In this document: piece by piece, positions 1 to 48,104 of the stretch
How the letters are laid out: each line of letters starts with the position of its first letter
Position numbering within the stretch: the stretch's first letter is position 1
Virus record (IMG/VR): IMGVR_UViG_3300045988_050969
From: a virus
DNA: 64,000 nucleotides
Strand: one strand, 5' to 3'
Made by a program: the position numbers and the translations under genes
The notes under the pieces: model-generated
Told to the model about the DNA's origin: nothing
Database searches by the model: none
Seen by the model: the letters and a program-made list of their open reading frames with translations, nothing else

Positions 1-3000
1 TAATCAGAAGTTCTAGTCTTACCGTTTATCTTGTCTGCCTACATCTCATTAGTAAGTATTTGCTTCTGCTGTTCTTCGGTAAGATTATTATAAGTAGGTT
101 TATACAATCTAGTATCACCTACATATTTTCCAGTAGTATATGCTAAAGCATGAGCGAATAAATCAGCTCTTGCCCCATCATTAACATACTTGCTTATGGT
201 AGCTACAGATAATTGATCTGCAAAAGGAACAGATAATCCAAGATCCATTACCTGTTCTCCTACTTCTTCTCCTAAGAATCGCTGTATAACTGGTTTACGT
301 TCTTCTATTTGAGATTCTACATACTTTATAATACCAGATATACCATCTACATTTACATCTAAATTCTTATCCTCTTTTAGTCTTTGTAAATCCTGTTTTC
401 TTGAATTAAGTTCATCTCTAAGAGTAAGTAAGTCATTGTAATCTTGAACAGCAACCATTCTGCCCATGAATTCATTAGCATACTCTTCTTCAGACAGTAC
501 ATTTCTTTCACCCAGTAATTGGTCTACGTATTCGGATAATTCCTTTTTACTTCTAGAAGTAATATCAGATGCAGGTAAATCATTAACTATCTGTCTTCTT
601 CTATCACTACGTTTTTTATCATAGCGAGCTAAATAATCAGAATAATGTTGCTTTATTTCTTCTTTTAAATCAGCATCTTCTCTTATTTTCTGAATAACAC
701 TTTCTATTTCTCTAGTAGAAGCTTCAGATGCTTCACTAGCATCTTTTAATCTATCTTGAATATATACAGCATTTTTTACTACAGATATAAAGTCATCATT
801 ATTTATTCCTAGTTCATCAGTTATACTACGTAAAGACTTATTATTAGATAATCTTTCTATGTTATTTACTAATCTTATGTCTTCATCAATCATTTCATTA
901 GTAACACCTTCAGGTTTAAATTTATCCTTAAGAGTTTCTAAATTATTGATTATTCTAGAATAACCTTTTCTTCCATCAGAACTAGCAGCATTCATGAACT
1001 GCTCTACCTTATTCTGCTTTTCAGCATTACCATATCCGTCAGCAATATAACCTCTCAGATTACTATCTGTAAGGTATTGAGCAGTAGCACTATATACATC
1101 CGGTGAACTAAATACTCCAGACATAAATAATCCAGTAAATCCACCTATATCCATAGATTTACGTAAATCAGCATCACCATTTAGATTCTCATCAGGATGA
1201 ATACCATAGTATGCCATATGAGCTTCTCCTGCTAATTTTAATGCATTAGCAGCTCCCTACAATAGACTATAATCTCCAGCATTATCATACTTACCAGTTC
1301 TATAGTAATTACTTACTACTCCCTGTTGGCCTTCTTCTGTCTTTTCCATGAAGTAAGAAACGCCTAATTTCTTACCAATGTTAGTGAGATTACTTATAGC
1401 ATTGTATGCTCTAGTTTTACCTCCAGGAGTTTTCCATGCTTTATCTACAGCTCTAGCAATAGTACGATCTATAATACCATCAGCTGCTGCATATAAATCA
1501 TCTTTACGTAATCTATCAATTACAGTAGTTTCTAGTCCAGAGGATATATTACGATTACCTACAGCTCTTTTAGCAGCTTTCTATAATCCAAAGTAGTTCT
1601 TCATATATGAACCACCAAACATAAACATACCTTGAGCTAAGTCAGATAACATTAAAGCTTGATTAGTCTATCTAACTACATCTAGACCTTTTTGAGAATC
1701 ATTTACTAGCTAATTAAAATTAGCGTCGGGAGTGATTATATTCTGTGATAAAGCGTTTTCTAATACTTCATAATCTGTCATTTCAGAAGTATCAAATCCT
1801 CTGGCTTTTAGCTACTCATCGGCAGATTGTATTACACTGGGAAGATTAATTCTCATCTAATCTGCGCCTTCTAATACTCTCTACTTAAATGAATCAAATA
1901 CTTCAGCTTGAGTTTCTGAATTACGAGTGTAATTAGTAATAGCAGCTTGAGTAGCTAATTCTGCAGCACCAATTAATAAAGGAGCAGTACCACCAGAACC
2001 TGCAGCCATAACTGCTTTAGATGCCCATTTGGCAGCCATGCTAGTACCAAATTGTCCTAACATAGCTCCAAATTCAGAATAACTAGTACCTAACTCTGGT
2101 AATGCATAAATCCAAGATTCTGGATTAAATGCAGATATTTGATTATTCTCTTGTTTTTCTCTAAACTCAGCAGATATTTTACTTGGGTCATACAACCAAT
2201 TACCGTGCTTTAAAGTATGTATCATACTTTGTATCTACTGATTTTTATCAGCTAAACGAGAACTTACAACCTTTTCAGCATTATTAAGCTATTCAATCTG
2301 TTTTGCTAAATTGCTGCCTTGGTTTTTACTACTCCACATATATTCTATTTGATCTGGAGATAATTGATGAGTTCTCCCAAAGATTGCATCGTTTATACCG
2401 TCATTAGCTAATAAGTGCTTAAAGTTATTACCAGGATTAAGATCACCAATATAATCTTCTGCTAGCCAGTCAAAACTATAGTATTTCCATAAGTCTGTTA
2501 CAGAACCAAATTTATCAGTACTGAATAATTTACCAGGTCTAGTCTCATAGAATATATCCTGTAAATACGGATTAGTTCTAGCTAGCTCTTTTAAACCAGG
2601 TTGATGATATATGATGTTACCGTTCTAATCTAATTGGTTTACACCATTTTCTATATTCTTAATATTATCTTCTAGTTCAATTATTCTATTCTGAGCTGAT
2701 TGAATTTGCGTAGGTGTCCAATCTGTTGCAGAATCAATCTATCTTTGTAAATCAATTAATTCTTGTTTACTTGTAAGATAATCTTTAGCTAGATTAATAG
2801 AATTTAAATAGTTAGCTTCACCCTCTCTAACTTCATTCTATAATCTACTTAATTTAGATTGATCCTTCTTTTCCATAAAACTACGATATACATCTAAAGC
2901 TTTTATGTCTCCAGACTTCTCAGCTTCATCGTACATATAGTCTAGGACAGTGATATTCTTATCCTTATCATCTGCGTCTTCACTAGACTGAAGTAATTCA

Positions 3001-3242
3001 GGCATACTTCTAGATGTCCACCAATTAGATATTCTACTTTTACTATCTTTTGTAGAATCTTCATTAGTAGTTTTATTATCGTAGTTTATATCGTTCTCTC
3101 TATCTTCTAATCTTCTTTGGTAATAATCTGATCTAGAATCGTATGAATACCCATAATCACCTTGTAAGGTATAATTAGGGTATTCACTAGCGATATTATT
3201 ATCTGTATTTTTACCTAGAGTATAGTTCTATTGTCTACTCAT
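1..3242 (-). CDS. large virion-associated protein (>1080 codons, C-terminus beyond window start), TAG read as sense
   Basis: ATG 3240-3242 lies just below the TAA (3252-3254) of the upstream gene. Track ORFs 1881..2225 and 39..1217 and the short fragments between them share one frame. The separators checked (1257-1259, 39-41) are TAG. Hand translation met no in-frame TAA/TGA. Function unknown. Confidence 0.6.
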
Positions 3243-3251
3243 AATATTATA

Positions 3252-6691: not shown

Positions 6692-6692
6692 A

Positions 6693-11787: not shown

Positions 11788-12249
11788 TCATTTCTCAGGA
11801 TAATCTCTTAATCGGTTAAAAATCACTTGTGCCAACTCTCTTTTGCAATCTCTACATGCTATAAATTGATATTTACCTTTATTAGTTAGTAAGCATCCTT
11901 GTTTAGACCAGAAGAATCTGTACTTATAATAATTACTGTGTTCATTAAGTAAGTACACGGGCTTACCAGTTTCTCTTGTGGCTTTCCAATCCCATCTAAG
12001 ACTCTTATTATCAAATGATTTAGGTAAATGTTTAATTATACTCAAAGTACCTAACCTACATGGTAACTTTACTTCTTTACATTCATACATTATTTCGTTT
12101 TTAATGTATTTAAAGTAATCAGTAACTATAGCTTTAAAAGTCTTTAAATCTACATCGTACTAAGTATTAGGTTCTATGTACTCCTTATAGCTTATATAAT
12201 AATCGGCAATAGTATAGCACTTTCTCTAATATTTTAATCTCTCTCTCAT
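11788..12249 (-). CDS. hypothetical protein (153 aa)
   Basis: Track ORF 11788..12090 (TGA stop) is co-framed with an upstream segment holding two TAG codons, back to ATG 12247-12249. That ATG overlaps the TGA of the upstream gene (ATGA). Confidence 0.5.
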
Positions 12250-14092: not shown

Positions 14093-15010
14093 TTAGCAAC
14101 CGCATCCGCAACCGTTATTATAACCGTAGCCGTAGCCGTAGCCATAATCATTCAAGCCACCCTGACAACCAAAAGGATTGCAAGTTAAGTAAGCAGGAAC
14201 AGGACACGGACGAATTTGATTAACGATGTTTGCAGTTTGAGCTTGCTGAGAAGCAGACAATTGTAAAGCTTGTTTATCTTCACGCAAAGCATCGATCTTA
14301 TTCTGCATTTCTCTCATTTCGAGTTGACAGAACTTATCATTGATAATTTGAGTCTGTGCATCTATCTTAGCACCTACAATATTAAACTTAGATGCATTAT
14401 CAGCCATTAAAGAATTGAATCCATTAGTAATAGCGTTCTGCAGTGTGTTAGTCTGATTGCATACAGACAGCTGATTTTCATAACCCATCTTAGTGATGTT
14501 GTTATTTACACCGCTAATAGATTCTCTAACATTGCAGCAGCAGCTAGCTAACTGAGAAGCCAAGCTTGCATTACCAGAAGTAATAGCATTAATTACTTCA
14601 CAGCTAGACAATTTAGTATCGCAAGAAATCTGGCTTACTCCAGAATTGATAGTGTTAAGAGCTGTCTGAACAGAGTTAATATCACAATTCAAAGTATTAG
14701 CCAAGTTATTGATGGCATCTTTATTACCATTAATAGCCTGCATCAACAGATTAGTGTTAGCGTCACTGTTCAGTTCAGAAGCAAGAGCACCAGCGTTACG
14801 TCCGCCGAAACCATTACCACCGAAACCACCCCAGCAGAAGAAGATCAAAATGATCCAAATCCACCACCAACCGCCGTTTCCACCGAAACCACCGTTGTTC
14901 ATCATAGCCATCAAAGCAGCCGGATCCATACCTTTATTAGCGTTTTGCATTAGAGCAGCAAGACCAGCGTCAATACCGCGATCCTGCACAATAATTCTAT
15001 CTTCTAACAT
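14093..15010 (-). CDS. unusual Gly/Trp-rich membrane protein with Cys-rich coiled region and C-terminal YGYGYGYGYNNGCGCGC tail
   Basis: Intact 305-aa track ORF with no TAG and visibly higher GC than its neighbours. Contains the segment GGFGGNGGWWWIWIILIFFCWGGFGGNGFGG and 14 Cys. Confidence 0.7.
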   Translation of the reverse strand: MLEDRIIVQDRGIDAGLAALMQNANKGMDPAALMAMMNNGGFGGNGGWWWIWIILIFFCWGGFGGNGFGGRNAGALASELNSDANTNLLMQAINGNKDAINNLANTLNCDINSVQTALNTINSGVSQISCDTKLSSCEVINAITSGNASLASQLASCCCNVRESISGVNNNITKMGYENQLSVCNQTNTLQNAITNGFNSLMADNASKFNIVGAKIDAQTQIINDKFCQLEMREMQNKIDALREDKQALQLSASQQAQTANIVNQIRPCPVPAYLTCNPFGCQGGLNDYGYGYGYGYNNGCGCGC

Positions 15011-15708: not shown

Positions 15709-16350
15709 TTATTGTTTAGGTAACTCGATTACACGAGTATCAGTTACCTTGATTATTGGGTTACTGTTAACTATCTGATATTTTTTGGTACGTATACGTT
15801 TCCAATCAAAGTGCCAGAACCTAACCCAGCCATTCTTATACTTATTACGATATTCTTTCTTTTCTTCTACAAACAGAATCTGTTGATTCTTAATATCTAA
15901 TGTGGCTTTAAGGATTGAGTCCTTCCTACTAACTATGATAGTTGTTAATGGATTAATTTTAAGTTCTTCGTCAAAATCTATTAACTTGTGTTTTATAATA
16001 GTTCTGACTGAATCTTTAATCTCAGTATTGATTACATTTATATTAGTTAGGTTCTTGTCTTTGATTTTGAGCTTTTTCTAAGCATCCTTGGTTTCTTTTA
16101 ATAAACTATCATTACTAGTATTTAGTTCTTCTATAGTAAGCTATAACACTCTGTTTAACTATTCTTTCTAGGATGCTAATTGCTCGTAAGCTCTAACATT
16201 GTTAGTTATTCTGTCAATCTCTTTATTCTTCTTTTGTAGCTAATGGTTCTAAACAAAAACAGTCGCAATAAGTAAACTAACTAAACCTACTGCGACTGCT
16301 CTGAAATTCCTTGTAAACCAATTAACTAACTAATTCAGTATTGGAATCAT
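15709..16350 (-). CDS. membrane-anchored coiled-coil protein, possible spanin or lysis accessory (TAG-sense)
   Basis: ATG 16348-16350. N-terminal hydrophobic stretch AVAVGLVSLLIATVFV is followed by a long Lys/Glu/Asn-rich helix. At least 7 in-frame TAG; TAA 15709-15711. Length is exactly 214 codons. Adjacent to the holin-like gene. Confidence 0.5.
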
Positions 16351-16831
16351 CTGGTAATTCTTTATCTAATGATATATCTAAATATTTCTCTCCTTTTGCT
16401 TTTATAACCTTTTTGAGGATTTTCCATATTTTCCATTTAGGATATAAGTCGCTAAATGATTCTAGTAACGACCAAAACTCAACTAAGGCTATCATTCCTG
16501 CTACTATTTCTACAGCGTGCAAGTTAATAGAGGTTACTACCAGCTAATCTATTATTGATGCACTAGTTATTGCTACTGCTGCATCTCTAGTCTTCCATAT
16601 AGTTTTCCATGCTTTATGTGATTCAATCTTAGGATGCCCATATTTTTTAGAGACTTTATAACCATAGATAGCATCAAGTAGTATCAATATACCGACAGCA
16701 GTGATAGGAACCCATACAGGTGCGAATATAGAAAGTAGCCCAGTTATAACAGAAGCTACGCATTTATTCGCACTACTGAACATGTTCTTAAATATTGACA
16801 TAGTATGTTCTCCTAATTGTTGGTAATTCAT
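16322..16831 (-). CDS. holin-like multi-pass membrane protein
   Basis: Track ORFs 16544..16831 and 16322..16522 are co-framed and joined by TAG 16544-16546. Several hydrophobic segments (VASVITGLLSIFAPVWVPITAVGILILL; HAVEIVAGMIALVEFW). TAA stop. Confidence 0.5.
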
Positions 16832-16945: not shown

Positions 16946-17968
16946 TTAAGGTTTCCGTTTTGAAAATCTTCTTGCATAAACTAATAGCTCTTTATAGCGT
17001 AATATTTTCTTTAGTAAGTTGATGCCATTACAATGTTTAAGCCAACCTATATGACTACACATTTCTTGTTTGTAATCTTCTACTGTAATGTTTTTCTTTC
17101 TGCCTAATCTAGCAGCTTTCCTACACATGCTACGCTTAATATTTTTTCTTACTAAAGTATAGTCATGCCTTATTACATAACCTACAAAAGATATACCTCT
17201 GTCTTCTACTTTAAATATCTAATAGTTATCTTTGAAAGTTAATTTTAAAGTATCTAAATACTATTTCATTTCTTCAAACAGTTCTCGTAAATACTCTTTA
17301 TCCTTATGTAGTATTACTATATCATCTGCATATCTGAAGTAATATTTAACCTATTTATCTTCTTTAAGCCAGTGGTCAAAGTAAGTAAGATACAGATTAG
17401 CAAAGAACTAAGATAAGTAATTACCAATAGGTACACCTTCTGCTGAATCTATTATCTCATCTAATAGCTATAATAACTTCTAATCCTTTATCTTCTTTCT
17501 TATTATGCTCTTTAATACTTCATGGTCTATACTAGGATAGAACTTTCTGATATCTAACTTAAGACAATAAGTAGTATTATCTACATCTTTTAAAGCTTCT
17601 TTAACATTATGTAATGCTTCGTGAATACCTCTGTGTTTAATGCAACTATAAGTATCTTTAATAAAGATAGATACCCATATAGGTTCCATTATATTCATTA
17701 CAGCATGATGTACTATTCTATCTGGATAATAAGGTAATCTAAATATTAATCTTTCTTTAGGTTCTCTAATTATAAATGTATTATATTCAGAAGTTTTATA
17801 CGTACCGTTAATTAAATTCTGCTATAGTTTTTTAAGTAATTCTTCTTTATTCTAGTCAAACTCTTTGATATCTTTTCTACTAGATTTATTTCTTCTAGCT
17901 TTCTTATCTGCTAAATATAAATTGTCTAAGCTAACAATCTTATCGAATAAATTATTATATCTCTTCAT
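16946..17968 (-). CDS. diversity-generating retroelement (DGR) reverse transcriptase, 8 in-frame TAG
   Basis: ATG 17966-17968 to TAA 16946-16948 is exactly 341 codons. N-terminus MKRYNNLFDKIVSLDNLYLADKKARRNK. Motif GVPIGNYLS-TAG-FFANLYL corresponds to the DGR-specific [I/L]GxxxSQ, with TAG at the Gln (17408-17410). RYADDIVIL (YADD) at about 17318-17344. Includes track ORFs 17480..17698 and 16946..17128. Confidence 0.85.
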
Positions 17969-18105
17969 AAATAATATTTTCTGAAATACCTTCACGCATC
18001 TTCACTTTCGTTACCAATGCGTTCAAGAAGCATGTCATATTTTACCAAGAGGTAAGGTTCAGCCCTTGATTTTTTGTCAGTTTATAATTTTTTTTACGTA
18101 TTTCA

Positions 18106-18201
18106 GTGTCCTGACATTAGCATTGGAATTGTCTAACTCATTGTTAGAATTCAAATTGAACAAACCTGCATTAGACTCATTGTCTGAGTTACTGCTGATT
18201 T
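18106..18201 (-). repeat. DGR template repeat (TR)
   Basis: About 93 nt align with 18346-18438 at an offset of 238 nt. All 26 mismatches are at plus-strand T, which is A on the coding minus strand of this copy. In the VR frame it is rich in AAT/AAC codons. Confidence 0.85.
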
Positions 18202-18230
18202 ACTCACGACTGCAACCTTTTATTGGTTAA

Positions 18231-23519: not shown

Positions 23520-23963
23520 TTATGCTTTAAATGTTGTTATTTTGTCTTCTGTACCATCATCATATACATCGATATGAACCCAGTTACACTATTCCTCTAA
23601 ACGTACTTTACATGGCAACAATAAAGGTTTAGCCTTTATTATCTCTCTTATTTCTTCTGCAGTCTTATCGTCACAAGTAAAATCAATGGCGTTACCTGTA
23701 ATGTGAGCACTAACATATACTCCTTTCTTACTCTTTACTAAAGGGCACAGGTTACAACGCATACCTCTTTGATGCATATTACCAATATTAATATGCATTG
23801 GCATTCGTAAAATATCAGTACGTAGACATAGTAATACATGTAGTAACTAAGTACTTAAGAACATCCACGACTATTCTCCAAATCTACTATATATGTGATT
23901 ACATACTAATTCCTTTACGTTAAAGTAAGGCTTAAGCTGTTTAATTATTTCTTCTCTCGGCAT
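23520..23963 (-). CDS. endolysin candidate, peptidase M15 (VanY / L-Ala-D-Glu peptidase-like)
   Basis: Track ORF 23589..23804 extended through TAG on both sides. Motifs SAHITGNAIDF and NWVHIDV match the H-x6-D ... H zinc ligand pattern of M15 peptidases. ATG about 23961-23963; TAA 23520-23522. Confidence 0.6.
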
Positions 23964-24132
23964 CATTGTTATTTGCAATTAGAGCCTCACCAACTAGATT
24001 GGCTGCTACGTTCATACCAAATTGTTTAGTATCGTTATCTATCTCACTTACCTTCACGTTGATTTGAAGGAGCAGAAGATATATCTGCTCCAACAATTCT
24101 CTATCTGTCATATGTGCTAAGTATGGATTCAT
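23941..24132 (-). CDS. hypothetical small protein (63 aa)
   Basis: Intact track ORF with a TAA stop. Its ATG overlaps the TAA of the upstream gene. Confidence 0.5.
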   Translation of the reverse strand: MNPYLAHMTDRELLEQIYLLLLQINVKVSEIDNDTKQFGMNVAANLVGEALIANNNDAERRNN

Positions 24133-29400: not shown

Positions 29401-29961
29401 AGTGATGCCATTAGTTACTAAGTCATAAGTAGATGTATTAGTACCATCTTTAAACTTAATATTAGTTAATGCTAAATTACCTATATATACGTACTGTCCA
29501 TTGTCTGTAAGTACTTTAGTACCATCTCCAGTAGTCTTAATTACTGTAGTAGTATATTGTTCTTTACTATAGTTTAATGAACCATCTACAGTAATAGTAT
29601 CAAATACTACTTGAGATATATTATCTGTACCTTCTTCTTTAATAAAATCAGGAGATTCAATGTATATAGTACCACCAACTATAGCTACTTCAGTTGCTAA
29701 GTCTAATCCATTTCTACTAGAATTAATAGTATAGATAAGCTTACCTTCCTCTATAGCTTGCTTTAATGCGTCATAATCTTCTTGACTTACTTTACCATCA
29801 ACGATAGTAGGATCAAAGATATACATAGTCATATCTTTAAACTCTATCATTCGAATCTTACCATTTCTTTCACCATCTTGGAATGGAATCATTTCCTATC
29901 CTGTGACAGCAGTACGTTCTGAAGCTTGACTAATCTTTAAACCTTTAATTCTTGCTATCAT
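26395..29961 (-). CDS. long tail fibre with C-terminal intramolecular chaperone (peptidase S74-like) domain (1188 aa, TAG-sense)
   Basis: Track ORFs 29392..29892, 28366..28812, 27862..28119 and 26701..26901 are all in one frame. Motifs TGKVPAAQLPSYVDDV and GETGKIYVSKDTNLTYRWTG. C-terminal GGFFKESDARLKSDIKPL resembles the S74 autocleavage region. Total is exactly 1189 codons. Confidence 0.65.
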
Positions 29962-30349
29962 TGTCAATCAAATTATTTTCTTTCTACTATTCTAACAGTA
30001 CTACACCGTTATCTTCCCATAACCAAGGATCTGCATCCTCTGTTAACAATGCTAATACATAAGGATCATACAATCCTCTAAAGTATCCATTACCACAACC
30101 ACACTTAATACAATACGGTTTGAGTTTCATAGGTATACCGCTATATAATTGTGGTTTAACCTAATGTAAGTATCTCTTTAGTATTTCAGAATCTATAGGA
30201 GTAGTAACACTAGATGTATTACTAAACTCCAATAAATCTGTTAACTCATTGTATACTATGGTTGCTACAACATCTCTATTGTTCCTAAGTATATTAGTTT
30301 TAAGTATAGAGTTTGTTTTACTGTTTATATATTCTTTTGCTTTATCCAT
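29945..30349 (-). CDS. hypothetical protein; possibly ends at tandem TAG-TAG (29984-29989)
   Basis: Track ORF 30161..30349 continues through TAG 30161-30163. After 58 codons comes TAG-TAG, then 12 more codons to TAA 29945-29947, overlapping the next gene start. Confidence 0.45.
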
Positions 30350-30359
30350 AGTAGTTTAA

Positions 30360-33300
30360 TTAAGCTTCACCAACACAAATACCTCCTACAAAACGCAAAC
30401 CATTTTTAGTACCAGTCCATCCTGTATAAGTACCACTAAGATTAGTTACTGTAATCATACTTCTCATAATATCTATATGAGTATTTACACCGTCAGATAC
30501 AGTCACTCCTAACGGAGATATATATGCCTTATTACCCTAAGAATCATAAGCGGTTACTGAAATAGCGTCTGATGCATCATCGTCTAAAGCTTTTATCTCT
30601 ATTCTAGATGAATCTATGCCAGTAGGATTCTTTAATACTATGGAAGAAGTATTATTATCATAAGTAATGACGATATTATCAAGAGTGCTATTCTTTAATG
30701 AGAAGCTGCCACTATTAATAATAGCATGCTCATCGCTTGTATTTCCTATAGTTATACTATCATTTAATTTCAAGTTACCACTAGTATCTACGCTGAACCA
30801 TTCAGTAAACGGAGACTGAGCCTAACCTAGATGCATACCAGTTGAATCTAGTTTAAACTAATAATCACCTGTAAGCTAGGATATATTATTTTTCTTTATA
30901 TATGTACCTACAGTAGACAGCCCACTAGTATTATTAATCATACTCAATCCGCTACCGTCTAACGTAAGCTTAGTGTCTGCCGTAGTTAACTGTAACTAAC
31001 TGTTCTCAGAATCAGCAGCTAAGTGTATACCTCCAGCTCCAAAGTAAGCTTCACCATTCTCAAAGTCTAACAAGAAATTAGGTCTAAATGAGTTAGAAGT
31101 GTTCATAGGATCTGAAGTATTAATCAAATGATATTCAGAACTATCACCACCACTAGAGTTCTTACCTCTTTGTGAGAACATCAAGTTATTGTTAAATACA
31201 GCTCCACCTACTAATGAGTTAGGTGCAATAAGTAAGTCGGTATATATTGCTTCATAATTCTCTAATACAGTCCATGCACCAGATGTATCTGTAGCAGGTG
31301 ATACATTATTCTATTGTGTACCAATCCAAGTCATAACTGACTTGAGGAAGTAATAATTACCATCACTGGTATCATATACATATGGAGCTTTCTCACCATC
31401 ATTAATATACGGAGTACTAACACTATATATACCCATAGGATAAGCTATTGGCTATTTACCTACTGGATCAGGAGTAATAATACCACCCATAGGATTAGGT
31501 TTAGACCATGCTGACTCTAATTCGTCATCTATTATTCTGGCTTGAGTAAACCATATATAGTTATATTCATCTCCATTAGTAAGCTCAGGTACATCCATAG
31601 ACCAACCTAAACTAGTAATATCTCTAGTCCATTTCATACTGTCATTATATGTACCAGTATAAGTAGTTTCTGTACCTTTACAGTATCTAACTTCATAACC
31701 TACTCCAGGAACACCTGAACCACCATTATCACCAGTCATACCAGTCATATAGTATGGATCGCACCAGTCTTCTATCATAGTATTATCACTACCATTGATA
31801 TAAGCAAAAGTAGCCCATAAGACTTTACCATCACTTAAAGCAGGAGCTGAAGAACTCCAACCAGAAGGATAACGAGTATCTTGGTCTAACGAAGGAGCTG
31901 AACTCCAACTATTGTTTCTAGCAAATCTGTATTCGTAGTAGTTACCATCCGTGCCTTGAACCTTACCTACATTTACCCAGTCACTACCATTCCATACCCA
32001 CAAGAAACCATCAATAACCCAACCGTCTCCTATTTCATTACCACTAGTTGGAAGATCATCTGTAGAATCTAAAGTGCCTTTAATGATAACCCCCTGCCCG
32101 GTTACTTTTACTACAGCTCCCCATTCTATTACTGTACCTGTTTCACCTTGAACTAACGCTATACATTTCCACCATATACCAGTAGACATATCAGGAGTAA
32201 GTACCCAACCATCACCAGGATTATATGGGTCATTGCTAGTAGGCTTTTCAGGTTGAGTCTGACTCTGTTTAAATGCTTCTACTTGATAATTAAAGTTATT
32301 ACCATCAAGACCAGGTACACCTGTAATCAAATAAGGACCTTGCCAACCTCTTTCGTCTTCAGGTAAAGATTCATCAATTACTAATTGATTATCAAAAGTA
32401 ACCAAAGCTTGAATACCCCATATTGCTTCTTTACCAGTTGCAGTAGGCATACCTACACCCCAGATACTACCAGGATTAATATTCAATCTATCTGGATCTC
32501 TAGGTTTAACATCACTACCAGATGTCTTAGTATACATTACTCTAAGATGATTACCGTCTTGACCATTATCTCCATATTTAGCCCATAATGCTGGAGAACT
32601 AAAGTTACCCCATTTATGTGTGTTACCTTTATACTTTCTTTGACTAACCCATTCGTATTGGAATTCTTGTGTTACTCCCTTAGGATCATCTGTCCAAGGT
32701 TGTTTACCAGGAGCTGATTGAGGTATATATTCATCCTGATCTGGATTATTATCTGTAATCTCTGCAGGAGAAGCAGGTAATTTAGTACGCTGATATATAT
32801 ACTCTACGCCATCTCCATCTTTACCATTCACTCCCCATTTGGACCAAATAGTAGGGTCACTCCATTCACTCCAACTGCCATCAGTTTGCAAGTTATGTGA
32901 ACAAACCCATTCACATTGATACGATTCACTGATGCCTGTAGGATGATCAGTCCAACCTTGTCTAATGGCTTCGGTTTGGCTATTACCTGTAGGTTTAGTA
33001 GGAGTAACTAAACTAGTTACAGTGAGTTTATATACAAACTCAATATTACTACCGTCTGCACCATCATGTCCATCTGCTCCTGTAAGACGTACAGGTGTAC
33101 TCCAAGGTACTACTATTGTGCCTTTACTAGAGAAAGTAGCAGTAGACATCCATACATAGCCATTAGGATTACTATCACTACCAGACCAACCTTCAGGATA
33201 TGTAATAGTATTAGTATCGTAATCCCAACTACCACCTACAGGAGTATCGGGTCTTTCTATACTCTTAGTAGACTTATATGCTATTACTACTCTAGTAGTA

Positions 33301-34455: not shown

Positions 34456-35430
34456 TTAGGCAATTGTCTTACCAGCAATAAATGACTGAATACCTTTATC
34501 TACGATAGAATCAACTAAACTAGGACAATAAACTTCCGTAGTCAACGGAGTAGTCTTGATATACTGATTATCATTGCTCAAGTACAGGTTATCATTTTCA
34601 ATAATAGCGTAGTCATATTCTGTACCTTCAACAGTCTTACGAATCTGTTCTACTTCAGGATATGCGCCAGTAAATACATGACCTTTATAACCCATGTTAC
34701 GTACTTCTGCGTCACGTACCTGTTTCCAATAACCCTTACCAGGATTACCTGCAGTCTTTTCAATCTTAGCACCAACAACGGCTTTAGGCTGATTAGCGAG
34801 TAATGCACCAGGAATAGTTTCGTACAGAGAAGCTTCCATAGATACAACGCTGTATTCATTTAAAGAATAAACGCCTTCATTATCATCCTTCGGCATAGCA
34901 GTCAAAGTCAGAACTGCAGCAGAAGCAGAAGCCTGTACTCTACGGTTCTTGTGTGCGTTAATCTTCTTCAAGAAAGCGTCTACTAAGTCTTTAGCAGTAG
35001 TAGTTTCAGCATATACTTCATAAGTATGAGTAAACTGGAAGTTGTTTACTTCAAAATCCTTATAAACAATACGCAAAACGTAACGATTACCAGCAATGAT
35101 AGTAGCGTTAGTTAAAGTGATTACAATCTTTTCTTCAACAGGAGCTACATATTCGCCAATTACTGCAGACGGTTTAGAAGCTTTCTGAATTTCAGTAGAG
35201 AAATCAATATTAGCTTTCTGTGCTACTGTACCATCAGGCATAGTAACATTCATCTTTTCACCTGCTACACCTACATACAGAGAGTTAGCATTTACTGCAT
35301 CAGCAGCAGTCTTAATAAGAGCCTTATTCTCATCGAACAAAGCAACATCACCAACAGCCAAAGCATCTACTGTAGTGTAAGAAGCCGGAGCTTGTTTTCC
35401 GATTAATACGGAGTGTACTGATTGTAACAT
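34456..35430 (-). CDS. abundant virion structural protein candidate (capsid-auxiliary or similar), TAG-free
   Basis: Intact 324-aa ORF with less AT-rich codon usage. It has its own roughly 100-nt upstream non-coding region and a strong terminator downstream. Confidence 0.7.
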   Translation of the reverse strand: MLQSVHSVLIGKQAPASYTTVDALAVGDVALFDENKALIKTAADAVNANSLYVGVAGEKMNVTMPDGTVAQKANIDFSTEIQKASKPSAVIGEYVAPVEEKIVITLTNATIIAGNRYVLRIVYKDFEVNNFQFTHTYEVYAETTTAKDLVDAFLKKINAHKNRRVQASASAAVLTLTAMPKDDNEGVYSLNEYSVVSMEASLYETIPGALLANQPKAVVGAKIEKTAGNPGKGYWKQVRDAEVRNMGYKGHVFTGAYPEVEQIRKTVEGTEYDYAIIENDNLYLSNDNQYIKTTPLTTEVYCPSLVDSIVDKGIQSFIAGKTIA

Positions 35431-36198: not shown

Positions 36199-36909
36199 TT
36201 ATTCAGATACTTGGTTTAACTAAAATTTAGAAGATTGTCTTTGAGATTCTATATTCTCTAAAGCAATTACTACAGCTCTATTAATAATCTCATACATGAC
36301 ATCTTCAGGAAAATCTAATTCTTGTTCAGGTTTAGTATAATCAAACTTAGTTGGTTTCTTAACATAAGTGAGATCTACTCTATAGAACTCTGTATTATCT
36401 TCTACTCTTGGAGCATACATAGGATCCTGCATTAAAACAGGATCTACATATACTAAGAGTTTATCATTTTCTAAAGTAGCTACTGGATTCTCTACCCAAG
36501 GTATATTATTATAAGTCTGCTTAAAAGGCTTTACTAACTCATGGCTAGTAAGTACACAGTTAGTCTAGAATTGTCCATACTTAAGTAATACACTAAGTAT
36601 AGTCATTCTATTATCTTCATCATGAACATCTTCTAATGCATACTCATTGTAGTCTGTATGTACAGCATGAAGGTTAACATCTGTAGCTATTAACTTCTCT
36701 ATTTCAGATAAGTTAGATACAGAACCTTCTAAACCTACTCTTAAAGCATTGTTACCAGTAATCTTATTACTTAAGATTTCCAACTATGCTTGATTAAGAA
36801 ATAAGTCTACTTCTTCATCTAAGAATGCTGGGCATCCACCATAAGCAATACCTTCTGCATTCTTATCCAGAACTACCTTGAAAATTATATGAGAATCTTT
36901 ATTAGTCAT
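36199..36909 (-). CDS. head/neck-module protein, unknown function (236 aa, TAG-sense)
   Basis: Track ORFs 36565..36783 and 36220..36432 are co-framed. TAG at 36220-36222. ATG 36907-36909 overlaps the upstream TAA. TAA stop at 36199-36201. Confidence 0.55.
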
Positions 36910-37661
36910 TACTTAGATTTAATTTCATTGAGTATCGCTAATTTAATATCTTGATTCTTTTTATCTTGTAAATAAGCAATAACATCATCGATACCATTAC
37001 CAATCAAATCTGTACCAAAGAAATATTGAGTACGATTCTTTCTAATAATGTTTTTAGCAATAGCTTCTTCAATAACAAAGTTAATTTCTTTATTTGGGTT
37101 TTCTACCCATTTCAGCATAAACTTTTCAGGAGAAGTCTCAACTTGTTCTGTAAGTTTAGCTTCAACTAATTCATTTGACATTGTATCTGATTTCATACCA
37201 TACAGACGTAAGCACTTACGCATATCTTCAATGGACATTTTATCGAGCTCACGATAAGCTTCACGTTTAACTTTATTAACACGATTAGCTTGTTCAGCTT
37301 CTGCATCTTTATTAATCAGTACATAATCTTTAGAAGGATTCATATTACTTAACCCATCTGCTACTCTTTTATGACCTTTAAGGAATAAGTATTGCAATTC
37401 ATCTAAAGGTTTCTCAGTATCAAGAATCAAATCTCTCTTACCGATTTTAACTGCAAAGGTAGTCCAAAAATCACTATTAGGAGCTAATTCACCTTCTTCT
37501 TTATTTAAGGCTTTTTCTAATCTACGAGCATCTTCTGAGCTCAAGCCAGTGTAGATATTACCAGATCTAGTCCAGTACGGGCCTACATAATCAAAAGTAG
37601 TAGGCCATTTAGTAAGTCCTGTCCAAGGATTTACTTTCATTATTCTAACGATTACTTCCAT
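36909..37661 (-). CDS. hypothetical protein (250 aa), TAG-free
   Basis: Intact track ORF with a TAA stop. The true start may be the internal MKVNPW. Confidence 0.65.
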   Translation of the reverse strand: MEVIVRIMKVNPWTGLTKWPTTFDYVGPYWTRSGNIYTGLSSEDARRLEKALNKEEGELAPNSDFWTTFAVKIGKRDLILDTEKPLDELQYLFLKGHKRVADGLSNMNPSKDYVLINKDAEAEQANRVNKVKREAYRELDKMSIEDMRKCLRLYGMKSDTMSNELVEAKLTEQVETSPEKFMLKWVENPNKEINFVIEEAIAKNIIRKNRTQYFFGTDLIGNGIDDVIAYLQDKKNQDIKLAILNEIKSK

Positions 37662-37689: not shown

Positions 37690-38361
37690 TTAAGCGGCGA
37701 AATTCAAAGAATGATTGTTATACTCTTCTAATGTTATCTTTCTTATATAAACATTTTGTTTCTTCCATAATTTCGGAATATCTGGTTCACTGTATGTCCT
37801 AACTAAAGTTATAGTAGTATTATAAAACCTAGCACAATCTGCTTTAGATCTAAACACATTGATAACGTTGTTATCTACATCTAGTATGGCTACAGGTTGT
37901 TGACATTTTTCAACTAAATTCATTATATGATTATGCAACTTATCTGTAGTCTTACCTTTTCGTGTTTCCGACATCTTCTTTTTAGTTTCTTCAGATGCTT
38001 TTCTTCCAATAGCTTTTTGACGAATTTTATCTTTAGTTTCTTCAGAGTGCATTCTACCAAATGTTCTGTCTCCGCCTTCTGTTAAGTTATAACCTTTTTC
38101 TCTATTCATAGAGTCGTATTGCTTAATCCAATACTTTTCTTTTTCTTTTAACTCTTCATACGTATCAGCAAAATCAATTATTTCTAATGTAAAATTTTCT
38201 TCTCCGTATTTAGCCATTGAACGATGAATAGGAGCAGGTTCGCCAATGCGAGCTTCATACCAATGATGGCGATACCTCGCACCAGCGCCCTGATTAGTTA
38301 TTCCTATATAAACTTTTCCAGTAATCTTGTTAGTAATTTTATATACGTCGTTGCTTTTCAT
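37690..38361 (-). CDS. GIY-YIG homing endonuclease (free-standing), TAG-free
   Basis: N-terminus VYKITNKITGKVYIGITNQ...YRHHWY...EKGYNLTEGG matches the GIY-(10-11)-YIG, Arg and Glu core. C-terminal repeats SEETKDKIRQKAIGRK / SEETKKKMSETRKGK are NUMOD3-like DNA-binding repeats. Confidence 0.8.
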   Translation of the reverse strand: MKSNDVYKITNKITGKVYIGITNQGAGARYRHHWYEARIGEPAPIHRSMAKYGEENFTLEIIDFADTYEELKEKEKYWIKQYDSMNREKGYNLTEGGDRTFGRMHSEETKDKIRQKAIGRKASEETKKKMSETRKGKTTDKLHNHIMNLVEKCQQPVAILDVDNNVINVFRSKADCARFYNTTITLVRTYSEPDIPKLWKKQNVYIRKITLEEYNNHSLNFAA

Positions 38362-38455: not shown

Positions 38456-39919
38456 TTACTCTAAAATGAGCTCTCCGCAAGCTCTAGGATCTCGTAACAT
38501 TATACCCATTTCACCAAGGAAGAATACGGTGTAGCCGTCCTTACCATTAGATCTCAAGGTATCCTTAGACTTAGCATAACCAGACGGAGCAACAGCACCA
38601 CCAGTGTACCAAGTTACGAATTCACGATCCTTACGAACTACTTTAACGATATTAGCTTCACCATCACGACGACCAAGATCCAAGAAAGTCATACGATATG
38701 ATTCCTTCGGCTTCAAGGTTACAGGATGCAACTCACGATTATAAGTAGGATCGTCATACAACGGGAAATATTTCAAAGTCAACTCGATGCCATTAGTCAT
38801 CTTGTAAGTCTTGAACTAACCGCCAAAAGTCAAGTTATCACCAGAACCAGTTACAAATACTGTATCCATTAAGTTCATAGTAGCTACTTTTTCTTTCAAG
38901 ATACGGTCAAATTCACGCATACCCATTTCACCAGTCAAGGCAACAAACTTACGTTCATTAGTACCCAGGCAGTTATAAGACAGGTCAAACAAGAAGTCTT
39001 CCAACATCTCACCAGTCAAGTGAGTGTAGTAACGTCTATTAGACGGAGCAATCTGTTCCAACAGACCAGCACCGATAAATACCGGACGACCGTTAGTACC
39101 CTTCAGATTACAAGAACCATCTTTGTTAACATTAGTCTTCATATAAACGAGCATACGTTCACATCTCTTGTACCATTCACGTAAAGCTTTCCATTCCTGA
39201 TAATCAGCCCACAGATAAGAAGTCTTGCCAGTAGCAGGATCTTTCAAAGCTATTGCCATTACTGTAGAATAAGCTGAACCAGTAATATCATAGTTAACAC
39301 GAATAGTAGTAAGATAGTTACGCATCTTGAAGTGAGTGTTGTAGTTCAAGATATCACCCTCTTCACTGTATTCTTCATATGCAGAAGCAAGACGAGATAC
39401 CTGTTTTCCAGCTTCAAGATATTCAGAAGGAATATAGGAAGTAGGCTGACCATCTGCTACAAAGCAGGTATATACCCACAGATTACCATCTTGATAGGGA
39501 GCACCTGATACACGTACTTGGAACTCTCTGTTATCAAATTCGAGAATAGCACCAGGACCAAACCAATTATCTTCTAACCATAACATGATAGGAGTGTTAC
39601 CCAAACCTGCAGTAGAAGTAGCAGTAATAGCTGCGCCATTCCATTTAGCGTCTCTAATTGTTACGGCTCTGTCATTATCAACCATTACAGACCATTCAAA
39701 AGAAGGCTGATCAATTGTCATTACATTGCCAAGACCACCTGTCAACATATCCAAAGAAGTGCTATAACCACTATCTTTTGTACCAAATACGTAAGACAAG
39801 ATAGTAGACACCTGATACGGATTCTGCTGAGAAGCTACTGAAATCTTAGCAGTATCAATCAAGTCGGAAAACCACTTACCTTTGTAGAGTTGAAGGTTAT
39901 TAAGAATATTGTTATCCAT
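38456..39919 (-). CDS. major capsid protein candidate (487 aa, one TAG)
   Basis: Track ORFs 38816..39919 and 38456..38800 are co-framed and joined by TAG 38816-38818. Size, strong codon bias and position downstream of the portal and the acidic scaffold-like gene support the call. Function is inferred from context only. Confidence 0.55.
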
Positions 39920-41411: not shown

Positions 41412-41498
41412 AACTGTTAAACAATCTCTTGATTCTTGTTTTTATTTACCTTATTTACTAAAGGTCTAGTTAGAAAATCTTTATATAATACACTTGGT

Positions 41499-42789: not shown

Positions 42790-42794
42790 AACTA

Positions 42795-42854: not shown

Positions 42855-42869
42855 AATTAATTCCTCCTA

Positions 42870-43334
42870 TTATTTAATTGTTTTAAGATATTGTCTCCAA
42901 TTTTTCTTATTAGCCTTATAAGTCTTCTTTCTATCCTTAATCTTATATTTATCAAGATCTTCAGGCTTACGTGTTTTCAGATAATCAAAGTTATCATCAT
43001 TAGCATAAGCTTCCATTTCATAAGGAATAGTATAGTAAGCACTAGATGCAGGATAGATAATCGGATTACCTTTAATCCATTCCCATGCATAAGACCAATA
43101 ATAACTTATCCATCTCTTTTTATCTTTAGCTTCATAGAGATGAATATTTTCATGATTCCAAGTAGTAGGCTTAATCTGAGATTCAGGTTTTCTACTTAAC
43201 AAGTAACCACACCAGCTCATTGCAGAATAACCACTAAATGGATAATGGTCCATATGCTTATACTCTACTTTGTCTGCTTCTACTTTAGTGAATAACTATT
43301 TGATTATCCACCACGTTTCTTTAAACCAATTCAT
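42870..43334 (-). CDS. small HExxH-motif protein (154 aa, one TAG)
   Basis: Track ORF 42870..43253 extended through one TAG to ATG 43332-43334. Contains WNHENIHLYE (HExxH). Confidence 0.5.
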
Positions 43335-43336
43335 AA

Positions 43337-45847
43337 TTATTTCTCTCCTGTTACTTTATTCTTAATCGCAGTTTTGGCTTTTAATCTTTCTCTTTCCATT
43401 GCTGCCTTGTCTTTAGCTGCTTGCAACTTCATTTCATGATCCATTCTTTCTCTTTCAAGCTAATTCTTCTTATCTTCTATCTCTTTTTTCATTTTCTGCT
43501 CTCTAATCTTAGCATTGAATTCAAATTGTTTAGAAGCTTCATCAGATGCTTGCTTACGTTCAGCTAAAGCTTGCTGGGCTATTTCCATGACATCAGGTAC
43601 ACCATTCTCATTCTAATCCATATTTTCAGCACCTCTATAAGCATTAAGTTGAGCTACAGTAATCTTAGTAGCATTATCTTGGTCTATTTTATATTTCTCA
43701 AGATCCATCTCTGCCTCTTTAATCATAAGCTCTTCTTCCTTAACCTCATTTTGCATTTGAATAGCTTGCTGTTCACGTTCTGCTTGAGCTTGCTCCATAG
43801 CTTGTTGTTGCTCCATACGTTTCTACTCAATCTCCTCTAATCTAGACTTAATCATACTAATATTATCCATAGTAATGATTTCGGCTATATCGAGTAAGCT
43901 AGCTCCATTCTGCATAGCAGGTTGCATAAGTTGTTTAAGAGCTTCTACTTGTTGTTGATTCTTAGTAGTATCATCAATGAATATATCCATGTCTTCATAG
44001 AAGAACTCATCAGAAAGAGTTATAAATGCTCTAGTAGCATCATCAAGGATATAATGTAAGCATCTTTTATTATCTTTCCATGCTACTTTAGAAGTATCTA
44101 ATAACATAGTAAGAGCTTCTTTCTTTACTTGATTATGAACCCAGAACCAAGGTTCAGTAATATGAGCTGACTATACTATAGATCTCTCTACATTACCTAC
44201 TAATTCATTAGATGCAACAGAACCTTCACGCTATTTACTTACTCCTGATATTTCTGATACCATAGCTTCAATCTTATCCATAAGATTAATATACTAATCA
44301 ATAGTATTAGCCATAGTAAGATCCAATGAAGTAAATTGATTGAACTGAGATGGCTTACCACCTTCTCTACCGGGTATATCCCATCCTTCTTCGTATGGAT
44401 TAATAAATACTACACCAAGAGCACCTAAGTAATGCATCCATTTATTCACATCTATGCCCATAGATTTAGGTATCTAAGTAACGTCAATAACAGGTACTTT
44501 ACCTTTATCTCTAGCCATAGCGAGTTCTAGTCTGTACCATAGTACAATATACATATACTGCAATGGTTTCATCATACTTACCAAAGATCTAGGAGCACTA
44601 TTAGTATTATTGTATACAACTCCTGTATAAGGTAATTTTTGAGAATTAAGATTATCAGCAGATATGTGTTGGTATTCTAGTGGTTGTATACCTATATATA
44701 AGTCTTCTCCAACTCTATAACCTTCCCATACCTCTATAATCCAAGTCCATTCAACGTTCAACTCCATACCAGTAACCTTGTAGGACTCGTCTACTTGTAA
44801 CTCATCAATTTCTCCAGTATTAGGATCTTGATAAGTAACGAAACCTATTTTCTTAAATGACTTCCAACAGCAATGCCAAACATTAATGTTATCAGACCCT
44901 TCAAACGGATTTGAAGTTAACCCATTAATAGTTCTTGTTTTTAAGTGAGGATAATCCATAGATGTCTTACGTACTTCAGGATTAATGCCTCCCCTGCTTA
45001 CATCATCTACCATTTCAAGCAATTCATTTAATTGCTTTTCTGTCATTTTATCATAGAATCTATCATAAATTTCTGTAGCTGACATAATCATCTTACGGCA
45101 ACACCAATCAGAGTCATGAATGAATTCTAAGTCTGCGCTCTAGTCATAACTAAAGTAAAGAGGATTAACTCGTTCTAAATAAGGATTACCATTTATAATA
45201 CCAATATAGTATATTTCTTCTCCAGCTATCAACGCGTCCTTCCAACCTTTATAAAACTCATGAACTACATTAAGTTTATTCTTAAGATAATTAAGGCTAT
45301 GATATGCTGTTACTTCTGCTATATCCTTATAATCCTTACTTAGATATTTCTATATCTTTTCTGGAGGTAATATTTCACCATTCTGTAATGCTTGTTGATA
45401 TCTCTAAGCCTCTTCAGGGCCTAACTGACTCATAATAGTAGCCATTACATAATCTTCAAGCATTTGTTTAGCAGTATCCTGTACTTCACTAGTAGCTATA
45501 TCACTAGTACGTACTACTCTAAAATTAAATGGTCTTTTTGTTTCTTCACCTAATAATAAGTCTATTTTAGGCTTAATTATATTATAATCCTATGCTGTGG
45601 CAGGGAATCCATCTTTCTATTTAAAAGGATTTGTAACATACAAAAGATCTTTCTCATTATAGATACTATTGTATAAATCATAGTAAGTCTACATCTCCTC
45701 ATATCTAGTACGCCCATTTCTACCGCCTCCACTATTAAAGCCTGACTTACCTATTATATAGTCAACACAGGCTTCTTTCCAATCTTTAGTCTTTTTAGAC
45801 ATAGGAAGTTTTTGCACAGGAAATGAACCAATATTTCTACTTATCAT
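43337..45847 (-). CDS. portal protein candidate (836 aa, TAG-sense)
   Basis: Track ORFs 44474..45091, 43823..44107 and 43613..43816 are co-framed. ATG 45845-45847 is 7 nt below the terminase stop; TAA at 43337-43339. Total is exactly 837 codons. Charged coiled-coil C-terminus. Size and position next to TerL support the call. Confidence 0.6.
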
Positions 45848-45853
45848 ATTCTG

Positions 45854-47899
45854 TTAATTAAATGTATATACATCGTCATCGACTTGACTGAAGCTATCGT
45901 CATAACTCCAGTTACCATAAGTAAAGAGAGGACCGTCGAATAATAATCTCTCTCTGTTAGTTTTTTTCTTCTCTTTTACAACTACATTATATAGCTGTTC
46001 ACGATAAATCATTACCTGCATCAACGCCATCACACGGTCAAAGTTACCTATATCATTATAACCTATAAGCTCTTCTAATAGCGGTTCTGATAATATATCG
46101 TGTAGGTTTTTATGCCCTGGAGATTTCTCATCATTTAACCAATCTTTGATGAGTCCTTCACCCCATTGTTTAATCTGTTTATTCATGTGACAACCTTTCT
46201 TTCGTTGCACCTTAGAATTGCTGATGATATCAGATATAATATCTGGCTAATCAGCCAAAAGATAGTCACAATGCTTAGCAGTAAAGTATGGAAACAAACC
46301 TTTACGCTCATTTTCATACATAATTCTGCCATTATAATAAACTGCGAGTTTACGTAAGTTTTCATAATATTCCTCTGCTGTAGCAGGCCTTCCTGTATAC
46401 TCAGCTACTATTATATCATAGTAGTTTTCAAAGTTCTAAAATCTCTTATATACAAAAGTAGATCCTAATGAGTTAGTACCCGATTGATCATGATCATAAG
46501 GGTCTACTCCAAGTATATATAAACCGATAGGAGCATCCTTTACAGGGTGTTCCCATATAACTATAGAACCAGTAGGATCATCCTCTTTAGATAAAGGATA
46601 ATGAGTAATATCACCTTGTTTTTTTATTACCCATTTAAGACTACCATCTGATTCCCATACTAAATCACCTATCTATTTGTGATTTGATAATTTCTTATTC
46701 GTACGTATTTTAGCTAGTTGTTCTTGTAATTCTTTTTTAGGGAATATATTACCATTAAATTCTAGACATGCTTCAGCTGGAGTAATACAACGTTCCGCTA
46801 CATAACGGTCTACTGCTACAGAACTAGTAGCATTCTCTATTACGTCTTTACGCTGTTGTAATACGTATTCTAAAGCTTTATGTCTTATAGTATTACCGTC
46901 ATTATCCATATACATACGATTTCCCTACTCATCTCGTATGTCCATGTTTGTATACTAAGGTATGAAGAATCCACATTTAGTATCTCCTACATTCTCATCC
47001 CATATGTTATCAAGCTCTAAACAATTATAACCTTTAGGCTTATAAAACATATCTTTAAGAGTAAAGAAGTTAGAATCTTCATCACCACCAGTACCAAATG
47101 CAATCATAGTAGCAAATGCTCTACCATCATTCTCTACAGAAGGTCTAGCGATTTGCCATGCTGCGCCTAATTCTTTAAATGAACCAGCTTCTTCAAATAG
47201 AATAAGGTTAGCTTTCTTACCACGTACTACATCAGGATTGTCTTTCAAAGTAACCCCAATAATTTCAGATTTATAACCTACTTCTATTTGATTACCATAC
47301 TCATCCTTCATACTTACTGCAGCGCGTTTACGTAATTGAGTATTTACAGCTCTTTTCTTACCCCACGCAGTATGTTCATCTATAAAGTCTAAGTAGTCCC
47401 AAGCTTTAGTAAGAATACCATCATCTGTTAAATATTGCTTATTTGAAGCATATACATATGATTTAGAGTTAGGTATAAGATAGTAATTACGACATAACAT
47501 AGCAGCTCCTTTATAGGAGTAACCTTTACGTCTAGACTTAAGTACACATAAATGTTTACCCTATTTATGAGCTTCATTTACTGCATTAAAATAGTAATAA
47601 TCATAGTCCCAAAAATCAGGAAATGTAACCAACTACTCTGATACTACTTCCCCATTTACTATACTATTGACAGTACGGTTAATAGGACAATAATTTAAAT
47701 AAAAATAGTTATACCCACTAATGAAATCACCATCATCAGCTGTATAACCATTAATACAACGTTCCTTTTCCTCTGTCCAGAAACGCATATATTCTGCCGT
47801 ACCTTTGGGGTGTGGACAGTATTGACCTGTTCTAATATATGTAAGAGCAGGCTATCTAAACTTATTACTATTTACTATCTTCTTATTAAAGTCGACCAT
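45854..47899 (-). CDS. terL: terminase large subunit (681 aa, TAG-sense)
   Basis: Track ORFs 46955..47500, 46673..46915 and 45854..46210 are co-framed. Motifs VLKSRRKGYSYK (Walker A region), ANLILFEEAGSF (Walker B/coupling), IAFGTGGD and LGVDPYDHD (nuclease Asp). ATG 47897-47899; TAA 45854-45856. Confidence 0.7.
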
Positions 47900-48104
47900 T
47901 TCTCTTCTTTGTTCTAGTGAGACTGATTAAAGCTTCTTTTATAGTCTTTTCTGTAATCTTACTGTACACAGTACTGTTGGCGATATCGAATTGACAAATA
48001 ATACCATTACCGGCAGCCTTCCATATCTCCGGAGTAATTTGGTATCCATCAAGCTCATCCTGCATAGCAAGGAAAGTTACATTCTTACCTCTAAGTTTAT
48101 CCAT
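47886..48104 (-). CDS. small protein upstream of terL (possible small terminase or DNA-binding), TAG-free
   Basis: Intact 72-aa track ORF. Overlaps the terL start by 14 nt. Confidence 0.45.
   Translation of the reverse strand: MDKLRGKNVTFLAMQDELDGYQITPEIWKAAGNGIICQFDIANSTVYSKITEKTIKEALISLTRTKKRNGRL

Follow-up and report, generated by a model that had tools for sequence, protein, structure and literature searches.

The reading of TAG, normally a stop, as glutamine ('code 15') in the late genes of crAss-like phages was reported by Yutin et al. 2021 (PMC7886860). The same architecture was described by Borges et al. 2021/2022 (10.1101/2021.08.26.457843), who also reported a recoding bias towards lysis genes in crAss-like phages and proposed that the arrangement controls the timing of lysis. 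Metaproteomics of two crAss-like phages found glutamine at TAG (Peters et al. 2022, PMC9523058), and Mgcod (10.1101/2022.06.29.495998) is presented as a tool for the layout of dual-code genomes. As these accounts describe them, code-15 crAss-like phages confine the reassignment to the structural and lysis block, keep the standard code in their early and replication genes, carry a phage-encoded suppressor tRNA, favour TAG in lysis genes and are depleted in TAG as a stop. The subject here is a 64,000-nucleotide stretch of viral DNA (IMG/VR record IMGVR_UViG_3300045988_050969), referred to as the window, for which an initial annotation made from the sequence alone had claimed that the whole late module, positions 1 to 48104 on the minus strand, is written with TAG as a sense codon, most likely for glutamine. 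The finding is correct and it is already known for this phage group, as the closest relative is annotated through TAG and the recoding has been published for crAss-like phages.

By nucleotide similarity the window is assigned to a human-gut crAss-like phage of the Crassvirales, family Suoliviridae, close to the Birpovirus phage cr115_1, and covers about two-thirds of the genome. A 24-kb query from the late block matched RefSeq NC_055898.1 (uncultured phage cr115_1; Crassvirales; Suoliviridae; Uncouvirinae; Birpovirus hiberniae; from human faeces) with 88% of its length aligned at 95.1% nucleotide identity, a figure that describes this late region. Other Suoliviridae genomes matched the same query at 77–89%. 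Gene order in cr115_1 is that of the window, the window's candidate transfer-messenger RNA (tmRNA) and its tRNA-Leu have counterparts there, and orthologous full-length coding sequences in the RefSeq annotation resolve genes across the late block. The terminase large subunit (TerL) is annotated there at full length, 2046 nt as in the window, and so are the portal, the major head protein (major capsid protein), the reverse transcriptase (RT) of a diversity-generating retroelement (DGR) and the giant virion protein; these coding sequences are thus already translated through TAG. TAG is also found in cr115_1 at 122 of 165 aligned window TAGs. The two genomes differ in about 55 codons switched between TAG and CAA/CAG, in an HNH endonuclease gene that cr115_1 has between portal and TerL, in a GIY-YIG gene that is longer in cr115_1 and in the slot for the suppressor tRNA, which in cr115_1 holds a non-orthologous tRNA with the anticodon CUA, split by a putative intron.

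TAG is a sense codon throughout the late block, which holds the packaging, capsid, tail, lysis, DGR and virion RNA polymerase genes. All 21 positions at which the initial annotation had placed a minus-strand TAG read CTA on the plus strand. With TAA and TGA as the sole stops, 37 closely packed minus-strand open reading frames (ORFs) are obtained in 1–48104, and their 15,401 codons contain 172 in-frame TAGs and not one in-frame TAA or TGA, including between the fragments that had been merged. In the two off-frames TAA, TGA and TAG occur at 13–82 per 1000 codons, so the in-frame absence of TAA and TGA is not due to chance. All complete ORFs begin with ATG; their lengths are multiples of three and their stops are TAA (32) or TGA (3), as had been claimed for the merged genes, and never TAG. 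The start/stop overlaps that had been taken as a sign that TAA and TGA remain stops are also present, as ATGA at 10862–65 and 12246–49 and as TAATG at 21985, 24130–34 and 36907–11. The comparison of coding density with the standard bacterial table (table 11), suggested along with the original claim, is clear: ORFs of at least 100 amino acids cover 38.9% of the late block under table 11 and 88.9% once TAG is sense. Freeing TAA instead gave 43.0% and freeing TGA 38.9%.

TAG makes up 26.5% of the glutamine-family codons (CAA, CAG and TAG) of the block, and seven of the 37 late ORFs have none. In the base that comes next, in-frame TAGs resemble CAG, with A in 44% and T in 22% of cases, and not the true stops, of which 72% are followed by T. 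The late block extends past the start of the window, since the gene at 1–3242 corresponds to the N-terminus of a virion protein of about 4,500 amino acids in cr115_1.

The fragmented table-11 ORF map, taken alone, could also be produced by assembly or sequencing errors, or by pseudogenisation of a defective genome. Such an origin has a negligible probability: TAA and TGA are spared and TAG alone is affected, independently assembled relatives share half of the TAG positions, and gene lengths match those of the RefSeq orthologues and of the cultured phage ΦcrAss001. It was rejected on the shared TAGs, the colinear alignment with ΦcrAss001 and the lack of in-frame TAA or TGA.

TAG in the late block is glutamine, to judge from the residues that relatives have at the same sites. 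With X put in for each TAG, the late proteins were compared with four relatives in tblastn alignments, in which the subject codon facing every window TAG was read off. A window TAG stood opposite TAG 261 times and opposite CAA or CAG 107 times; the next partners were Lys (24) and Asn (18). Glutamine codons are therefore 107 of the 262 non-TAG partners, against a background of 2.75% Gln. In the reverse direction, the relatives' TAGs stood opposite CAA in the window 86 times and opposite CAG 51 times. With cr115_1 alone, 29 of 43 changed TAG sites are Gln codons. In ΦcrAss001, which uses the standard code and has 25–35% protein identity to the window, Q is found in 8 of 31 aligned TAG columns against a background of 3.5% (P = 8e-6), and the single TAG of the capsid gene lies opposite Q. 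The enrichment is strong against both backgrounds.

Conserved motifs agree with these counts. The portal (43337–45847, minus strand) has 13 in-frame TAGs, and its alignment with ΦcrAss001 gp20 (PDB 7qog; E = 5e-97) is unbroken across all of them, four falling on Q in conserved blocks (GISKQREG, LQSSHITE and QQQINL). The DGR RT (16946–17968, minus strand) was matched to the Bordetella phage RT, bRT (8ub7), with E = 4e-43, and this alignment likewise runs straight through its TAG positions. The peptide on which the first glutamine assignment had been based, GVPIGNYLS-TAG-FFANLYL, is present and fits the DGR RT motif [I/L]GxxxSQ as IGNYLS(TAG). Its TAG, at 17408–10, lies opposite the Q of IGSLTSQ in bRT, as had been predicted for the invariant glutamine, and the corresponding position is Pro in group II and retron RTs. 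A PDB sequence search gave no match for TerL (45854–47899, minus strand), which has eight in-frame TAGs. Together, the codon counts in relatives, the ΦcrAss001 columns and the RT motif bear out the assignment of TAG to glutamine.

A tRNA with the anticodon CUA, which the initial annotation did not contain, supplies a mechanism for the decoding of TAG. It was found with ARAGORN and the Rfam tRNA model at 48383–48454 on the minus strand, 3' of the middle genes; the late genes begin about 280 nt downstream, with the ATG at 48104. It is predicted to be an amber suppressor with a tRNA-Gln-like body. It folds as a cloverleaf and scores 37.7 bits against an Rfam gathering score of 29. It has G18G19 and a TΨC loop; the covariance alignment shows one bulged nucleotide in the T stem, the pair U1·G72, A73 and, in the anticodon stem, the mismatch A31·C39; CCA is not encoded. 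Its anticodon loop, UUCUAGC, differs only by G36A from UUCUGGC, the loop most often seen in tRNA-Gln(CUG), and U1 and A73 are as in Bacteroidales tRNA-Gln examples, which were inspected by eye and not tabulated. A scan of bacterial genomes for the D-arm motif, ATGGTGTARTGG followed by one or two nucleotides and AGCAC, found at least 120 loci, many of them in Bacteroidales, and tRNA-Gln accounted for 105 of the 117 tRNAs called (~90%) among the matches listed; as the motif was picked from phage tRNAs, this is a test of specificity and not a phylogeny. The CUA tRNA thus looks like a Bacteroidales-type tRNA-Gln(CUG) with the single change G36A. An exact-match scan of viral contigs with its anticodon and T arm matched only one 4.3-kb contig, not enough to analyse covariation.

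The supE (glnV) suppressor of E. coli is a tRNA-Gln in which G36A converts CUG to CUA and which inserts glutamine at UAG. The window tRNA has the same change from CUG and also a tRNA-Gln body; it differs in being encoded by a phage, in being of Bacteroidales type (U1, A73), in its bulged T stem and in having no encoded CCA. It is presumably charged by the host glutaminyl-tRNA synthetase (GlnRS).

An alternative is that TAG is sense and stands for some other residue, such as Pyl, Tyr, Leu, Ser, Trp, Lys or Glu. ARAGORN labels the CUA tRNA 'Pyl', a label given purely from the anticodon, and K, N and E also occur opposite TAG in more distant relatives. In addition, the CUA tRNA of the related phage cr113_1 is 91 nt long and has a long variable arm, unlike tRNA-Gln; TerL of cr113_1 shares nearly all its TAGs with its genus mates, which leaves little room to read the amino acid there. 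Set against this, no residue other than glutamine reaches more than 24 occurrences opposite TAG, compared with 107 for Gln codons, and the spread of the remaining partners mirrors that of the partners of CAA and CAG themselves. The invariant motif glutamines match in portal and RT, the window tRNA combines G18G19 and a TΨC loop with a tRNA-Gln D-arm and an anticodon loop one mutation from tRNA-Gln(CUG), no pyl genes are annotated in cr115_1, and the proteomics reported for other crAss-like phages gave Gln (PMC9523058). Another amino acid is therefore very improbable and glutamine is retained.

A CUA tRNA is found in the same slot, upstream of TerL, in 10 of the 10 Suoliviridae RefSeq genomes examined. 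These tRNAs are heterogeneous, some being tRNA-Gln-like and some having variable regions of 8–11 nt; the RefSeq label 'tRNA-Gln' on the relatives' CUA tRNAs was not used, as it may merely reflect the code table chosen. This constancy bears on the suggestion that read-through depends on the host, by way of a host suppressor or of a host that lacks release factor 1 (RF1) or has TAG as a sense codon, the phage tRNA being dispensable or non-functional. The atypical features of the window tRNA (bulged T stem, modest score) would fit that suggestion, as would the many recoded phages with no detectable suppressor in the surveys of PMC7886860 and 10.1101/2021.08.26.457843. On the other hand, the position of the CUA tRNA has been kept across the family even though its sequence has been replaced, which argues for selection on function, and the predicted hosts of recoded phages are reported to be standard-code bacteria (10.1101/2021.08.26.457843). 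Dependence on the host is thus improbable, and decoding by the phage tRNA is the better account.

The replacement itself is seen in cr115_1. The flanks of the slot are near-identical between the window and cr115_1 and the tRNA between them is not orthologous, which implies that a tRNA cassette has been exchanged. The counterpart of the window tRNA lies at about 30533–30833 of NC_055898.1 (minus strand) and is unannotated in RefSeq; ARAGORN, with introns allowed, finds it with an insert of about 228 nt in the anticodon loop. The insert has a weak match to the Rfam group I intron model (21.3 bits, E = 0.004), below the gathering score. The splice sites chosen by ARAGORN give the anticodon CGA. 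On our reading of the sequence, exon 1 would end in CCCGGCUCU, the last U of which can pair as U·G in P1 with GGAGC, and the insert would end in G; ligation would then give the loop CUCUAAC, the same as the loops of cr53_1 and cr56_1. Homing-endonuclease genes flank the tRNA slot in several relatives. It is a tentative proposal, a little short of an even chance, that this slot, which separates the middle genes from TerL, works as an exchangeable cassette: it would always contain an amber-suppressor tRNA, but one that is replaced even between near-identical phages. On this view the window has an intron-less, supE-like tRNA-Gln(CUA), and the cr115_1 tRNA would be functional only after the putative group I intron has left the anticodon. 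Were this general, a part of the suppressors 'missing' from recoded phages could be explained by intron-split or exchanged tRNAs, and the switch of code could be further delayed by splicing. The replacement of the suppressor tRNA between the window and its closest relative is possibly new and may be a modestly useful detail.

Between the tRNA and the late operon lies a non-coding stretch of about 270 nt (48112–48381, minus strand) that is highly conserved in cr115_1 and cr53_1. It contains a G+C-rich hairpin, GAAGGGGTTCGTTGTGAAACGCGCCCCTTTC, at 48125–48155 (minus strand), before the first late ATG, which is conserved in cr115_1, cr53_1 and cr125_1 and may be a terminator or a regulatory element that divides the middle and late units; a simple terminator scan did not call it. 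The stretch folds no better than its shuffles (z = −1.56), and an Rfam search of it returned no family, just weak terminator-like similarity. The stretch may serve as a promoter for the late genes, as a terminator or as an antiterminator.

The genome is partitioned at this point. Per 1000 codons, in-frame TAGs number 11.2 in the late, 1.7 in the middle and 0 in the early block (late block against the rest, Fisher P = 1e-12). The middle block (48523–54694, minus strand) is compatible with the standard code, with three in-frame TAGs in 1,789 codons, and the early block (54983–64000, plus strand) has none in 1,845 codons, nor does any of its genes stop at TAG. In the middle block no more than two genes do so, at the TAGs 50890–92 and 53213–15. 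Both are 5–7 codons ahead of a TAA or TGA, and the one at 53213–15 is opposite a Gln codon in cr115_1; these may be real stops early in infection and Gln codons later. The third, at 52021–23, is codon 26 of the gene at 51727–52098 and is conserved in cr115_1, where the orthologue is annotated as 'transcriptional regulator'. The plus-strand arm of cr115_1, which includes the replication genes, has three TAGs in 7,327 codons and no TAG among its 38 stops.

The most probable account by a wide margin is one of two coding regimes, a standard-code early and middle region and a TAG=Gln late block decoded by the phage CUA tRNA. The early (plus-strand) and middle (minus-strand) genes can be read by the standard code of the host, TAG being almost completely avoided both as sense and as stop; in the late block roughly one glutamine codon in four is TAG, and termination is at TAA and TGA only. 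The CUA tRNA, placed at the end of the middle block just before the late operon and presumably charged by the host, would decode the late TAGs. It would have to accumulate before full-length late proteins could be made, and in this way would set the timing of virion assembly and lysis. This gate on timing is inferred from the genome layout and the literature, where it is a published hypothesis.

The same codon meaning could hold and the partition not be a timing switch, if the suppressor were made from the start of infection or served mainly to damage host translation through read-through of host TAG stops, the late genes simply tolerating TAG or gaining it by drift from CAG. An anti-host role was proposed by Yutin et al. 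2021 (PMC7886860). Turnover between TAG and CAG/CAA in the 95%-identical genomes is nearly symmetric (29 against 26) and looks neutral, and a few middle genes carry TAG. TAG positions have no 5' bias within genes (Kolmogorov–Smirnov P = 0.6–0.8), which gives no hint of 'gatekeeper' TAGs close to gene starts. Drift would not lead one to expect, however, that early and middle genes with 93 CAA/CAG codons should have 0–3 TAGs, where ~25–30 would be expected at the late-block share, nor that the bias between gene families should be conserved, the spanin-like gene being rich and the capsid gene poor in TAG, in agreement with the lysis-gene bias reported independently (10.1101/2021.08.26.457843). 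The absence of a timing role is accordingly judged unlikely, although it deserves far more weight than the other alternatives, and the two-regime account with a timed suppressor is preferred.

Several points weigh against that account. For this particular phage the evidence for glutamine is that of sequence comparison. The suppressor tRNA has its bulged T stem, U1·G72 and A31·C39 and scores just 37.7 bits, so that its function is plausible and not proven. Nothing in the window handles host RF1, a competitor at every TAG. One to three of the middle-block TAGs (52021–23 and 53213–15) look like sense codons, which means that the boundary between the regimes is not absolute. The role in timing and lysis control is a published hypothesis and not a demonstrated function.

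The use of TAG within the late block is specific to gene families and the bias recurs in relatives, which are phylogenetically non-independent. A few late genes, that of the capsid among them, hardly use TAG and prefer CAG over CAA; TAG provides most of the glutamines in two small genes and in the spanin-like gene and the RT, where the enrichment is strongest. The major capsid protein gene (38456–39919, minus strand) has one TAG in 12 glutamine-family codons (relatives 3/49). The DGR target gene, a tail gene by the annotation of its cr53_1 orthologue (18231–20792, minus strand), is also poor, at 2/27 (relatives 7/74), and the genes at 34456–35430 and 14093–15010 (both minus strand) are free of TAG in the window, with 1/43 and 5/60 in relatives. 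Among the rich genes are the lysis regulator or spanin-like gene (15709–16350, minus strand; 7/13, relatives 28/43), the DGR RT (8/10, relatives 22/31) and the genes at 29945–30349 and 11788–12249 (both minus strand), for which TAG is 7/8 and 15/24 of the glutamine-family codons in relatives. The spanin-like gene adjoins a holin-like gene (16322–16831, minus strand), and an endolysin gene lies at 23520–23966 (minus strand); these three names are taken from RefSeq relatives. The TAG enrichment of the spanin-like gene reproduces the enrichment in lysis genes of Borges et al. (10.1101/2021.08.26.457843). That capsid and some other late genes avoid TAG in the relatives as well is a further detail, absent from the passages of the cited recoding papers that keyword searches returned, and the conservation of usage by gene family (capsid poor; spanin-like gene and RT rich) may be modestly useful.

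A GIY-YIG/NUMOD3 homing endonuclease gene (37690–38361, minus strand) lies between the capsid gene and the next late gene and, in contrast to most genes around it, has no TAG. In relatives, homing endonucleases occur here and at other positions, and TerL contains inteins. PDB sequence searches with the TAG-free late proteins encoded at 34456–35430, 36909–37661 and 14093–15010 gave no matches, and PHROGs and Pfam gave no function for most of the TAG-free or middle genes.

Compared with the known systems, the window has all the sequence-level features of the code-15 class: TAGs in hallmark genes, TAA and TGA stops, glutamine columns, a CUA tRNA and confinement to late genes. As far as the published accounts cited describe that class, there is no difference in kind, and the window is one more Delta/Suoliviridae genome. 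The code-change modules of Lak, Jade and Agate phages, as described by Borges et al., are alike in that the suppressor tRNA is encoded within a standard-code region, immediately ahead of the genes that are recoded; they differ in adding release factors and/or aminoacyl-tRNA synthetases, of which there are none in the window or in the annotation of cr115_1. In practice, the late block must be translated with TAG as glutamine, or fragmentation costs about half of the coding capacity. The window is a clean further example of two genetic codes in one phage genome with the decoding tRNA at their junction, and it introduces no new principle.

A complete DGR lies within the recoded block (16946–20792, minus strand), and DGRs are known in crAss-like phages (PMC7290462). 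The template repeat (TR) is at 18108–18199 and the variable repeat (VR) at 18346–18437, both on the minus strand, the latter near the 3' end of the tail gene, and 22 of the 22 mismatches between them are at TR adenines. No ORF was found between TR and RT, and no search aimed at avd (accessory variability determinant) was made. As the RT is the gene highest in TAG, retrohoming should also depend on the suppressor.

The early region has a candidate permuted (two-piece) tmRNA, found by ARAGORN at 61828–62220 on the plus strand with the tag peptide GNTSYVMNYSRIAA. The Rfam tmRNA_permuted match (61874–62129) is marginal, at 50.1 bits against a gathering score of 47; cr115_1 has an annotated tmRNA at the corresponding site. 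As a ribosome-rescue RNA, such a marginally matched tmRNA could have a functional link to the reassignment of a stop codon in this phage. A tRNA-Leu(UAA) is also found in the early region, as is a plus-strand cluster of structured RNAs with significant Rfam matches (RAGATH-6, RAGATH-7, three hatchet ribozymes and RAGATH-9), which lie among short ORFs at 56185–56335, 56392–56615, 57579–57690, 57789–57912, 60094–60241 and 61662–61842.

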